Assembly (NCBI GenBank): GCA_041666205.1
Contig: JBAYHI010000004.1
Span: 31,161-95,160 of the forward strand
DNA from: Patescibacteria group bacterium
Lineage (GTDB): Bacteria > Patescibacteriota > Patescibacteriia > UBA9934
Length of the DNA stretch: 64,000 bases
Direction: 5' to 3'
Part shown: in pieces, positions 1 to 1,989 of the stretch
Layout of the letters: every line of letters starts with the position of its first letter
How positions within the stretch are numbered: position 1 is the stretch's first letter
Notes under the pieces: model-generated
Seen by the model: the letters and a program-made list of their open reading frames with translations, nothing else
Database searches by the model: none
What the model was told of the DNA's origin: nothing
Translations under genes and position numbers: made by a program

Positions 1-1989
1 CTTGTCTTCGATCTTTTTAGATGCTTGTACCGGATCTGTGGAAAGACGACGGAATTCGGTAATCGTCATGGATCCCAATTCCTCTTCTGGTCCCACCAGC
101 GTTCGAGCAAATTTCACATCAGCGACTTTTCGAACCGACCCATCGCTTGGCGGGACGCTCGGGGCTGTGAGTTTCACCGGGGCTTTTGGTGGTTTTGACG
201 GGGCAATCGGTGAGGCTACGATTTTTTGTTGACGCAATTTTTCTTCCTCGAGAGCGGTTCGTGCAGCACTCACACGCACAGGCTGTTCAGGTCGCACGGA
301 TTTTTCTGCAACTTGGGCAATCGCGAGCGCTGGTGTTTTTGGTGCAGGCGTTAGGAAATTATTCTTTTTTGGCTGATCCCCGTGTTTTAAATGCTTTGCG
401 TCTTCGAGCGCCTTCATCATGATTTGCAAATCCTCCCCTTCGAGTTTCAATTGCTCTGCAAGCATGCGCTCGGTTTGGCGAGGATCTCGCACGCCACGCA
501 AATGCGCATCGACCACAGAATCAAATGTTTTCTTTTTGATGCCATTTTTCTTTGAAATTTCAATTGCGGGCTGAAGCGCATTTTTTACAGGATCCGCACC
601 GGGAACGAATTCATTTTGCGCTGGGGATTTCTTCGCTGGCGCCTGCGGTACGGGCAAACCCGTGCGTTTGCCCGTCGATTCGAGCGGGCGGACGCCTGGG
701 TCCGCCCCTACGGGAGCATCAATTTTTTTTGATGCGACGGCATCCGATTTGGATGCAGCCGGCGCCACGGATTTATCAACATCGGCAAAAACGATCTCCG
801 GGGCGAATTCGGATTTCTTTTCGGGGACGATTTCCGATTCCTGTACGGGCAAACCCGTGCGTTTGCCCGTCGATTCGAGCGGGCGGACGCCTGGGTCCGC
901 CCCTACGGCATCGTCCAATTTTTCCACAATACGCGCTGGCTGCACAACCAATTTCTCCGTCTCAACCATTTTTTCCTCGACTTTTGCAATATTATTTCCG
1001 GTTGGCAAAATACTCGCCAATGGCGTTTTGATTGCGCCCTGCCGTATGGGCGAGGTTTCCTCGCCCGGTCGATTCGCCGAATTCTGCGACGACGGGTCGG
1101 GGGACCCGACCCCTACGACATTTTCGTTTTGTACGGGCACGGCATGCCGTGCCCCTACGGCATCATCGGCGATCATCACTTCTTCGGGCTCGCGAACCAT
1201 TGGCAATGATTCGGCCACTGGCGCGGGCATTTGATCTTCCAATTTTTCCGGAACGATTTCCGAATTCGATTCAGGGATCATTTCCGATTTCGCTTCTGAT
1301 GGAATTTCCGATTCCGGTACGGGCAAACCCGTGCGTTTGCCCGTCGATTCGAGCGGGCGGACGCCCTCCTTCGCCCCTGGGGCTTCGGCGGGCAGGCTTG
1401 GGTCCGCCCCTACGGCATCACCCGATTCAACATGATCGAGCGCCTTAAAAAATCCCTCAACTTGCGTATCGGTGAAATCCAATCCGCCAATATCAAACGA
1501 ACGCTTTAAAATTTTTGCCGTGGCTTCTTTTGGTCGTGTTTTCTTGAGATACCCTGTTGCCAAATATGTGAACCGATCCATCAATTCTTCTGGAAGCTCC
1601 AGGCCCATTGCTTCTGCCATCTTTTTAACCCGATACTCTGGAGTCTCTTCTTCTTGCTGAATACGAATATCTGGGTAATCCTCAATGTTTCCGCCCCAGG
1701 ACGTTATTGCGTCGGCAATACCTGGAATAAATGTTTCGAGTGGAAGAAGACGGTGGCCAATCAAGTCGGCAGCAAGCTGTTTTGCAACGTCATCTGTGAG
1801 GCCAAATCGCTCTTTCACGATGGCTGGGGCATGAGTAATCTCTTCCTTCCCAGCAAGAATATCTTCACAAATAAATAGCGCTTCTTCCACTCGCTCTTCG
1901 CCAATCTGATACTTTTCCAGAACCCGAACAACCTGATCATACCCTGCGGGCTGAAACAGGTAGTTCATGACTGCCTTATTTTTTAACAT
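1..1989 (-). CDS. hypothetical repeat-containing protein, partial (C-terminus lies beyond window start)
   Basis: Reverse complement of 1..1989 is one uninterrupted frame (MLKNKAVMNYLFQPAGYDQ...), AAGGAG 6 nt upstream of ATG at 1989..1987. Missing from ORF track because no stop falls inside the window. The + strand ORFs listed here are antisense artefacts. Contains in-frame palindromic repeat insertions. Confidence 0.6.
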   Translation of the reverse strand, partial: MLKNKAVMNYLFQPAGYDQVVRVLEKYQIGEERVEEALFICEDILAGKEEITHAPAIVKERFGLTDDVAKQLAADLIGHRLLPLETFIPGIADAITSWGGNIEDYPDIRIQQEEETPEYRVKKMAEAMGLELPEELMDRFTYLATGYLKKTRPKEATAKILKRSFDIGGLDFTDTQVEGFFKALDHVESGDAVGADPSLPAEAPGAKEGVRPLESTGKRTGLPVPESEIPSEAKSEMIPESNSEIVPEKLEDQMPAPVAESLPMVREPEEVMIADDAVGARHAVPVQNENVVGVGSPDPSSQNSANRPGEETSPIRQGAIKTPLASILPTGNNIAKVEEKMVETEKLVVQPARIVEKLDDAVGADPGVRPLESTGKRTGLPVQESEIVPEKKSEFAPEIVFADVDKSVAPAASKSDAVASKKIDAPVGADPGVRPLESTGKRTGLPVPQAPAKKSPAQNEFVPGADPVKNALQPAIEISKKNGIKKKTFDSVVDAHLRGVRDPRQTERMLAEQLKLEGEDLQIMMKALEDAKHLKHGDQPKKNNFLTPAPKTPALAIAQVAEKSVRPEQPVRVSAARTALEEEKLRQQKIVASPIAPSKPPKAPVKLTAPSVPPSDGSVRKVADVKFARTLVGPEEELGSMTITEFRRLSTDPVQASKKIEDK
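648..722. repeat. GTAG-palindrome (REP-like) composite element, copy 1, inside CDS 1..1989
   Basis: Hairpins GGGCAAACCCGTGCGTTTGCCC and GGGCGGACGCCTGGGTCCGCCC followed by CTACGG (GTAG on the coding strand). Confidence 0.7.
844..909. repeat. REP-like composite element, copy 2 (near-identical to copy 1)
   Basis: Same two hairpins plus CCCTACGGC. Confidence 0.7.
1096..1170. repeat. REP-like element, variant with different stems
   Basis: GGGTCGGGGGACCCGACCC-CTACG and the perfect palindrome GGGCACGGCATGCCGTGCCC-CTACGGC. Confidence 0.65.
1317..1416. repeat. REP-like element, copy 3; second hairpin loop expanded by a nested small hairpin
   Basis: GGGCGGACGCC-[CTCCTTCGCCCCTGGGGCTTCGGCGGGCAGG]-CTTGGGTCCGCCC-CTACGGC. 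Confidence 0.65.

Follow-up and report, generated by a model that had tools for sequence, protein, structure and literature searches.

Four blocks of palindromic DNA lie in frame within a minus-strand gene at the left edge of a 64,000-nt stretch of contig JBAYHI010000004.1 from a Patescibacteria group bacterium (the window, by which the whole analysed stretch is meant); together they comprise nine GC-rich hairpins headed by GTAG, GTAC or GTAT, and the open reading frame (ORF) remains open across all of them. These blocks are very probably elements of the repetitive extragenic palindrome (REP) or REPIN type, translated within the disordered linker of a protein encoded in an operon that resembles those of type IV secretion systems (T4SS). 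The assignment is supported by the GTAG head followed by a palindrome, the inverted doublets, the location at 3′ gene ends and the presence in the genome of a gene for a REP-associated tyrosine transposase (RAYT), which are the features that define REPs, REPINs and REPtrons (PMC2817692, PMC3116915, PMC8266576).

The host gene occupies positions 1..1989 of the minus strand as a partial open frame that runs past the left window edge. Translation gives 663 stop-free codons over 1-1989, and the complete product (P0001) is 737 aa long. To locate hairpins, the sequence was scanned for GTA[N]GG[G/A] with a stem-loop behind it, and all are described relative to the coding (minus) strand. In 4/4 blocks GTAG starts at codon position 1, and CC precedes every copy, the units with CC measuring 66, 66, 99 and 117 nt; the claim of the first-pass annotation that the minus-strand ORF stays open across four in-frame insertions is thus borne out. 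Five of the hairpins are headed by GTAG on the coding strand, their opposite-strand partners being headed by GTAC or GTAT. Hairpin units are 23-28 nt long with stems of 8-11 bp, and the long forms of 58 nt are atypical for a GTAG-type REP, a class with a GT(A/G)G head and a stem-loop of about 20-40 nt.

Blocks C (843..908, minus; aa 362-383, AVGADPGVRPLESTGKRTGLPV) and D (648..713, minus; aa 427-448) are short REP doublets of 66 nt including CC, are 100% identical over 64 nt and both encode (A/P)VGADPGVRPLESTGKRTGLPV. Block A (1317..1415, minus; 99 nt including the 5′ CC; aa 193-225) is a long-form doublet that equals the C/D sequence plus an exact 33-nt (11-codon) insert in the first loop, giving the peptide AVGADPSLPAEAPGAKEGVRPLESTGKRTGLPV. 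Its first hairpin, GTAG GGGCGGACCC...GCGTCCGCCC, spans 1355-1413 and is followed by an inverted GTAC-headed partner at 1317-1343, while the loop of the first hairpin holds the inner module (1366..1398, minus; 33 nt, AGCCTGCCCGCCGAAGCCCCAGGGGCGAAGGAG), which encodes SLPAEAPGAKE. The earlier description of three near-identical copies with the same peptide therefore suits C and D (22 aa) but not A, which has 11 extra residues. A, C and D each consist of an inverted hairpin pair with a 12-nt spacer, in which the GTAG-headed arm lies on the coding strand (stem GGGGCGGACCC/GCGTCCGCCC) and the GTAC-headed arm on the opposite strand (stem GGGCAAAC/GTTTGCCC), and the two arms differ in stem (GGGCGGAC vs GGGCAAAC). 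The 64-nt unit is consequently such a pair and not one palindrome, as had been proposed together with the GTAG heads, which are present.

Block T (1044..1160, minus; 117 nt including CC; aa 278-316, ~39 aa) is a composite of three hairpins: the perfect palindrome GTAGGGGCACGGCATGCCGTGCCCGTAC (1131-1158), GTAG GGGTCGGG/CCCGACCC (1094-1116) and an inverted hairpin, GTAT GGGCGAGG/CCTCGCCC (1044-1066). Without CC it measures 115 nt and is closed by 7-nt terminal inverted repeats (TGCCGTA/TACGGCA). The stems of this fourth copy do differ from those of the others, as first noted, but the element is longer than was then described, with its three hairpins extending over 115 nt down to 1044. The palindrome types of the host-gene blocks are GGGGCGGACCC..GCGTCCGCCC and GGGGCACGGCATGCCGTGCCCC. 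At the protein level the repeats are dispersed, with 43 to 84 aa between blocks, which contradicts their initial designation as tandem peptide repeats. A candidate tryptic peptide predicted to lie in or overlap the blocks is TGLPVPESEIPSEAK.

The hairpins are far more frequent and more stable than expected from composition. The 26-nt hairpin A motif (GTAGGGGCGGACCCAGGCGTCCGCCC) has 2 matches and the 27-nt hairpin B motif (CGGGCAAACGCACGGGTTTGCCCGTAC) 3 matches in the window, compared to 0 matches for either in 100 dinucleotide-preserving shuffles; the window contains 17 instances of GTAG with a perfect hairpin behind it, whereas shuffles give 1.27 on average and 5 at most. Folded as single-stranded DNA, the blocks are more stable than shuffled sequences (z -2.4 to -5.9, and about -2.3 to -6.2 for all elements): block T reaches -41.3 kcal/mol (z = -5.9), and the minimum-free-energy fold of block C (-22.1 kcal/mol, z = -3.2) pairs both halves of the doublet. 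Rfam yielded no known RNA family at any element. Since the doublet is open in 5/6 reading frames, only the G|TAG frame being closed, an open frame alone is unremarkable.

The blocks are lineage-specific, recent additions to the disordered linker of an intact gene, a conclusion that follows from their foreign GC content, their sharp borders, their absence from orthologs, the variability of the disordered linker and the identity of the gene between sources. GC content is 63-72% in the blocks vs 48% in the remaining host gene. When A, C and D are aligned together with their flanks, identity begins at CCGTAG and ends at GTAC. The only close homolog among 5.8 billion proteins (P0002; 45% identity, syntenic operon, another Patescibacteria metagenome-assembled genome (MAG)) lacks the four blocks, and within its 22-kb locus such hairpins are confined to its own RAYT gene. 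None of 25 aligned orthologs, whose linkers range from 97 to 358 aa, carries the same blocks at the same positions, and diverged repeats at the same position, the pattern expected of an ancestral repeat, were not seen among them. Together with the nucleotide identity of the copies, these observations sustain the earlier proposal of insertion instead of an ancient repeat.

A different ortholog from another metagenome (P0131) bears in its linker three different hairpins with GTAG heads, again in the V-G frame; they lie at 1164-1228 and about 1420-1450 of its locus (L004) and read VGAIHESPV and, twice, VGDGSSVPA, and their positions differ from those in P0001. A further ortholog (P0135) carries VGAGSPRP. 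Because a VG..P regular expression applied to the protein sequences of 150 orthologs gave 22 matches vs 18 expected, i.e. is not specific, later checks were made at the DNA level only. A search with concatenated five-frame translations of the doublet produced no scored match, not even to the host protein, and is uninformative.

The host protein belongs to a T4SS-like operon of Patescibacteria: its gene is preceded by one for a 992-aa protein without a family match and followed by genes for PrgI-like, TraC-like and VirB4-like ATPase proteins. No Pfam, NCBIfam or PDB-fold match was obtained for the protein itself, and a Foldseek comparison of its model with the PDB was not significant; an exhaustive profile search, however, recovered 2275 relatives with conserved N- and C-terminal domains. 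In an AlphaFold2 model based on the ortholog alignment, the predicted local distance difference test (pLDDT) score is above 85 both in residues 1-190 and in the helical domains at the C terminus, whereas residues 192-464 have a pLDDT <50, except 263 and 314, and no secondary structure. All four blocks (aa 193-448) fall within this low-pLDDT stretch, which is predicted to be an intrinsically disordered linker tolerant of added residues; of its 273 aa, ~117, i.e. ~40%, are encoded by the blocks. The C-terminal domain, which lies 3′ of all four, is in frame and conserved.

With regard to mechanism, REP units would have entered the linker in this Patescibacteria lineage and then multiplied there, the survivors being only those copies that were in frame, stop-free and located in a tolerant region. 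The frame used reads GTA GGG GCx as V-G-A and yields a hydrophilic, Pro/Gly-rich peptide. The copies persist because their lengths are multiples of three, the frame is stop-free and the linker tolerates extra residues, and they are most likely near-neutral translated passengers. We infer that a RAYT moved the blocks and that the host protein is made and working, and the same applies to the number of independent insertion events: the evidence falls short of four independent transpositions and allows intragenic duplication or gene conversion after fewer insertions, with the unrelated stems of block T implying a second acquisition at least. Translated REP units at this locus would mean that the reduced genomes of Patescibacteria harbour active REP/RAYT systems and that one gene is able to take up nine hairpins (~117 residues) within a disordered linker and keep its frame; they would be a clean example from nature of new protein sequence created by mobile palindromes.

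The RAYT-like gene of the window, which encodes a Y1 (HUH) transposase of 174 aa, is located at 10736..11260 on the minus strand, 9.3 kb from the host gene. Its product matches Pfam Y1_Tnp with 32.3 bits (cutoff 23) and NCBIfam REP_Tyr_transpos with 55.7 bits, which is under the cutoff of 80, while the IS200 model gives 16.2 bits; the REP_Tyr_transpos match falls into two stretches, with a palindrome-encoded insert between them. The motifs PDHVHGI (HUH) and YIKNNP (catalytic Tyr) are conserved in 28 homologs. Whereas phmmer with this protein alone found no match in the PDB, a profile (A2) made from the protein together with its homologs aligns both catalytic motifs with those of E. coli TnpAREP (4er8_A, E = 2.9e-5). 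The perfect palindrome GTAGGGGCCAATAATTATTGGCCCCTAC (10951..10978, unstranded; fold z = -5.8) lies inside the gene and encodes in frame VGANNYWPL shortly past the HUH motif, and a second copy (10709..10731, minus; GTAAG GGCCAATAATTATTGGCC) begins 4 nt past the RAYT stop. With the GTAG head directly 5′ of a GC-rich stem-loop, the inverted doublets and this gene 9.3 kb away, the RAYT-type architecture proposed in the first-pass annotation is supported, and the window RAYT represents the candidate class of enzyme for mobilising GTAG hairpins.

In the sister genome, a RAYT (L003 1588-2145) occupies the same syntenic position beside a ~2970-aa giant gene but points the other way and contains another hairpin pair; being syntenic but inverted, it suggests vertical inheritance with a local inversion. 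The embedded pair is an inverted doublet (GGGCGGGTC / GGGCAGGTC) with the same architecture as in the host gene. The corresponding giant gene of the window (11339-20257), directly upstream of its RAYT and conserved in the sister genome, encodes a 2972-aa Cys-rich protein with only a weak CBM_4_9 match.

Elements of the same type also occur between genes, as originally reported, at 10709-10731, 23317-23344, 36092-36149 and 59528-59585, as well as in the RAYT gene and at the 3′ end of rsmA; altogether 15 hairpins, with heterogeneous stems, were found in the ~74 kb examined. The four intergenic copies begin 2-13 nt past stop codons, which is the location of GTAG-type REPs and makes the host-gene copies the intragenic exception. 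The palindrome GTACGGACAACCCTAGGGTTGTCCCTAC (23317..23344, unstranded) follows the stop of the RF-1 gene by 13 nt and precedes the likely start of a gene for an epimerase. Read from 23350, the longest epimerase ORF (22388-23350) would translate the palindrome (MIVGTTLGLSVH...); because the Pfam domain of the epimerase begins at residue 20, the start is probably an ATG near 23305, with the palindrome in the 5′ leader. A long-form GTAG hairpin (36092..36149, minus) begins 6 nt past the stop of a DAGK-family gene, and a second long form (59528..59618, plus; GTAA GGGCGGCCCC...) begins 2 nt past the RNase J stop, the long hairpin itself covering 59528-59585 and a second hairpin following at 59593-59618. 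Both long forms share with block A the inner motif of its 33-nt insert and have a GCCCGCTCGA tail, which in the 59528 copy is also the one found in the genic copies; their outer stems are unlike those of block A and are mutually complementary. Finally, the hairpin at 21006..21029 (plus; GTAG GGACGTTGC/GCAACGTCC) forms the 3′ end of the minus-strand rsmA/ksgA gene (20993-21796), contributing its final ~12 codons (SMDVARNVPTAQK) and its stop; in the product of this gene the Pfam RrnaAD domain ends at residue 255 of 267.

Several observations weigh against four REP insertions mobilised by a RAYT. Orientation and frame are the same in all four blocks, for which the chance expectation is roughly (1/5)^3, and this uniformity points to duplication or gene conversion, to an insertion-site preference or to selection on the peptide. 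A site preference is consistent with the shared GAYGATGCC / CC 5′ context, and selection that favours the hydrophilic V-G-A frame against Cys/Arg-rich ones also fits. The partner hairpins are headed by GTAC or GTAT, and in the S. maltophilia system no cleavage takes place with a GTAC head (PMC8266576). The stem type of the window RAYT (GGGGCCAATAATTATTGGCCCC) is unlike the stems of the host-gene elements, and the flank of its gene carries GGCCAATAATTATTGGCC, with the host-gene doublet absent there; given this different stem, the window RAYT is not shown to have moved the host-gene copies. The three known copies of the doublet all lie within the host gene, and the 24-nt hairpin B (CGGGCAAACGCACGGGTTTGCCCG) has no exact match in GTDB representative genomes or JGI metagenome contigs. 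Moreover, the case for insertion rests on neither an empty site nor a target-site duplication.

In an alternative account, one or two insertions were followed by the generation of A, C and D through unequal recombination, segmental duplication or gene conversion within the repetitive linker; this is a serious possibility, albeit one that we consider less probable than not. It would explain why C and D are identical and A differs from them only by a clean 33-nt indel, as well as the orientation and codon phase common to all blocks; A and C additionally share a 12-nt 3′ flank (GGAATCGGAAAT) and the GAYGATGCC 5′ flank, and the linker has short tandem repeats of its own, for example with a 24-nt period at 799-849. 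D, however, shares no flank beyond the element, the entirely different stems of block T require at least 2 acquisitions, and identity stops precisely where the hairpins end, as is typical when units are defined by an element and not by arbitrary duplication breakpoints. That the hairpins are kept for a function in nucleic acid, be it mRNA structures that stall ribosomes between domains or govern mRNA stability, or a DNA structure promoting variation in linker length, appears unlikely: the structures are strong (z down to -6.2), orthologs of other lineages have gained GTAG hairpins in the same linker and frame, and the RAYT palindrome is kept by covariation across phyla, which implies that in-frame hairpins can be maintained over the long term, but most orthologs do without such hairpins, and P0001 and P0131 carry theirs at different positions.

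An ancestral or selected protein repeat in which the palindromic DNA is incidental is highly improbable. The peptides are single-frame, Pro/Gly-rich and hydrophilic, like many linker repeats; they are nevertheless missing from the nearest ortholog P0002 and from 23 further aligned orthologs, the copies are nucleotide-identical while the protein is only 45% identical to its ortholog, related hairpins occur in non-coding DNA, and perfect DNA palindromy has no rationale at the protein level. An ancient protein repeat was accordingly rejected, being contradicted by ortholog absence and by the nucleotide-identical copies. There is equally little room for an assembly artefact or a decaying pseudogene. 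A Logan short-read contig (L001) does end inside block A, so GTAG-block repeats do disturb assembly, and the break of one assembly within the repeat is a warning for annotation and assembly alike. The full-length protein with all four blocks is, however, identical in three sources on different contigs (an ENA contig of 250.6 kb, k141_1316775; a contig of 95.6 kb that encodes the NCBI MAG protein MFA6522376.1; and another catalogue), which argues that the four blocks are not an assembly artefact, and the 737-aa frame is open, with a conserved C-terminal domain past the blocks; both possibilities were rejected on the grounds of identical independent assemblies and an intact frame. Translated REP-type elements in a tolerant linker thus account best for the four blocks.

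The palindrome inside the window RAYT gene has counterparts in other RAYTs. Among 80 RAYT-homolog loci from GTDB genomes (L006-L085), retrieved by peptide patterns that exclude the palindrome region, the HUH motif was recognisable in 73/80; with a palindrome defined as a perfect stem of >=8 bp within 150 nt, one lies in frame downstream of HUH in 52/73 loci and in the upstream 150 nt in 4/73, and the mean best stem is 10.5 downstream vs 5.7 upstream. ORFs are intact up to the catalytic Tyr in 47/52 cases. There are 45 different stem starts among the embedded palindromes, and the half-stem recurs outside the RAYT gene at the same locus in 32/52. At the corresponding position, RAYT homologs from many phyla read VGxxxxxPL(Q/R), VETxxxxSL or RRG...APT, in copy numbers that vary, and the embedded segment adds ~27 positions that E. 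coli TnpAREP lacks, inserted after the HUH strand and before the helix that follows. The palindromes are often headed by GTAG and their stems covary; type GTAGGGGCACGGCATGCCGTGCCCCTAC, found in RAYTs of Chlorobiaceae, Anaerolineae and Dehalococcoidia (L047, L053, L057), equals the first hairpin of block T.

As a tentative proposal, a widespread RAYT clade may carry its own REP in frame past HUH, maintained by covariation in many phyla and often matching the flanking REPs, so that the substrate would lie within the coding sequence of the enzyme. RAYT-internal REPs are not described in the RAYT/REPIN literature searched, which makes them a lead and not an established novelty. If the proposal is correct, the embedded hairpin could be a master copy that seeds new REPs, or a site of self-recognition or autoregulation. 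Within the 80 loci, in-frame GTAG palindromes also occur next to RAYT genes of other phyla in bona fide genes for HsdM (L009 2508-2535), HsdR (L012 5095-5122, 5335-5362), DnaE (L070 6797-6824, 9185-9212), an OmpA-family protein (L080 5169-5190) and a TMEM260-like protein (L041 4694-4713). These cases echo the enrichment of replication and repair genes reported in 2013 (PMC3733652). Were the proposal to hold, translated REPs such as those of the Patescibacteria linker, HsdM/HsdR and DnaE would be a regular output of RAYT systems and not rare accidents. Present in ~70% of a phylum-spanning clade, the embedded palindrome would offer a handle on how RAYTs and REPs remain matched and how new REP families originate, and this lead may be more valuable than the host-gene finding.

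Other features of the window lie outside these subjects. ARAGORN predicts at 8064-8142 a tRNA whose anticodon loop is enlarged and whose anticodon has four bases (tcct); the Rfam tRNA model matches there with 50.6 bits. A tRNA-Ile with the anticodon TAT (UAU) is found at 48346-48422; tRNA-Ile with this anticodon is uncommon in bacteria. The region 5548-7820 has a GC content of 0.60 vs about 0.49 for the window and long open frames on both strands, and is annotated as a Pfam-supported M23 peptidase (683-712 aa) in one assembly and as three opposite-strand ORFs in another. A bacterial RNase P RNA of class A is located at 61588-61974 (167.7 bits), and for the ORF at 62004-63419 no identical product is on record.

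Comparison with described REP systems places the host-gene elements among known families in some respects and apart from them in others. RAYTs bind folded single-stranded REPs, which they cut and rejoin nearby, with GTAG guiding both recognition and the choice of cleavage site (PMC8266576). As in REPINs and REPtrons (Bertels & Rainey 2011, PMC3116915; Nunvar et al. 2010, PMC2817692; Corneloup et al. 2021, PMC8266576), A, C and D consist of two inverted REPs with a 12-nt spacer that are able to form one long hairpin, the guide tetranucleotide is GTAG, and a RAYT with HUH and Tyr motifs is adjoined by a palindrome. Unlike classical REPINs, which are extragenic, exist in tens to hundreds of copies and flank the RAYT, the doublet is known from one gene only; its arms (GGGCGGAC and GGGCAAAC) differ, one being GTAC-headed, and the nearby RAYT is of another stem type. 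The cluster also resembles the bacterial interspersed mosaic elements of E. coli in that several REP hairpins with differing stems and alternating orientation lie within a few hundred bases, but those are intergenic and transcribed as untranslated RNA, whereas the host-gene cluster is predicted to be translated.

The Rickettsia palindromic elements (RPEs) to which the blocks were originally likened share with them the presence of palindromic repeats in frame in protein-coding genes, and RPE-bearing genes stay functional. RPEs are Rickettsia-specific (Ogata et al. 2000, via PMC3733652); RPE-1 is longer, and RPE-4 and RPE-6 correspond to the CGTC-tagged class. As RPEs have, by description, no GTAG head and no link to RAYTs, the resemblance concerns outcome and not family, and membership was rejected because host phylum, GTAG head and RAYT link all differ, and not from a comparison of RPE sequences. 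The appraisal of such remodelling as uncommon thus stands, while the Rickettsia comparison holds as an analogy only, the closest precedent being intragenic GTAG REPs (PMC3733652).

That precedent is the catalogue of intragenic GTAG and CGTC REPs by Di Nocera, De Gregorio & Rocco (2013, BMC Genomics 14:522, PMC3733652), in which dimers encode 20-30 aa, some genes are hit twice, replication and repair genes are enriched, and linker or loop sites are suggested to make the inserts neutral, with peptides such as VGAGLPA. The host gene matches it in having GTAG stem-loops in frame, both as singles and as inverted dimers, that encode a V-G-A type peptide, and the phenomenon is therefore known. In contrast to the cultured Proteobacteria, Opitutus, Thauera and similar organisms of that study, the host here is a Patescibacteria (candidate phyla radiation, CPR) MAG, and no paper on REPs in Patescibacteria was found in the literature searched; nine hairpins in four blocks, making up ~40% of the linker of one gene, and a long form with a 33-nt module are further differences. 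In-frame remodelling of genes by REPs is thus already known, and to it this locus adds a CPR host, a heavy load in a single gene and the long-form module.

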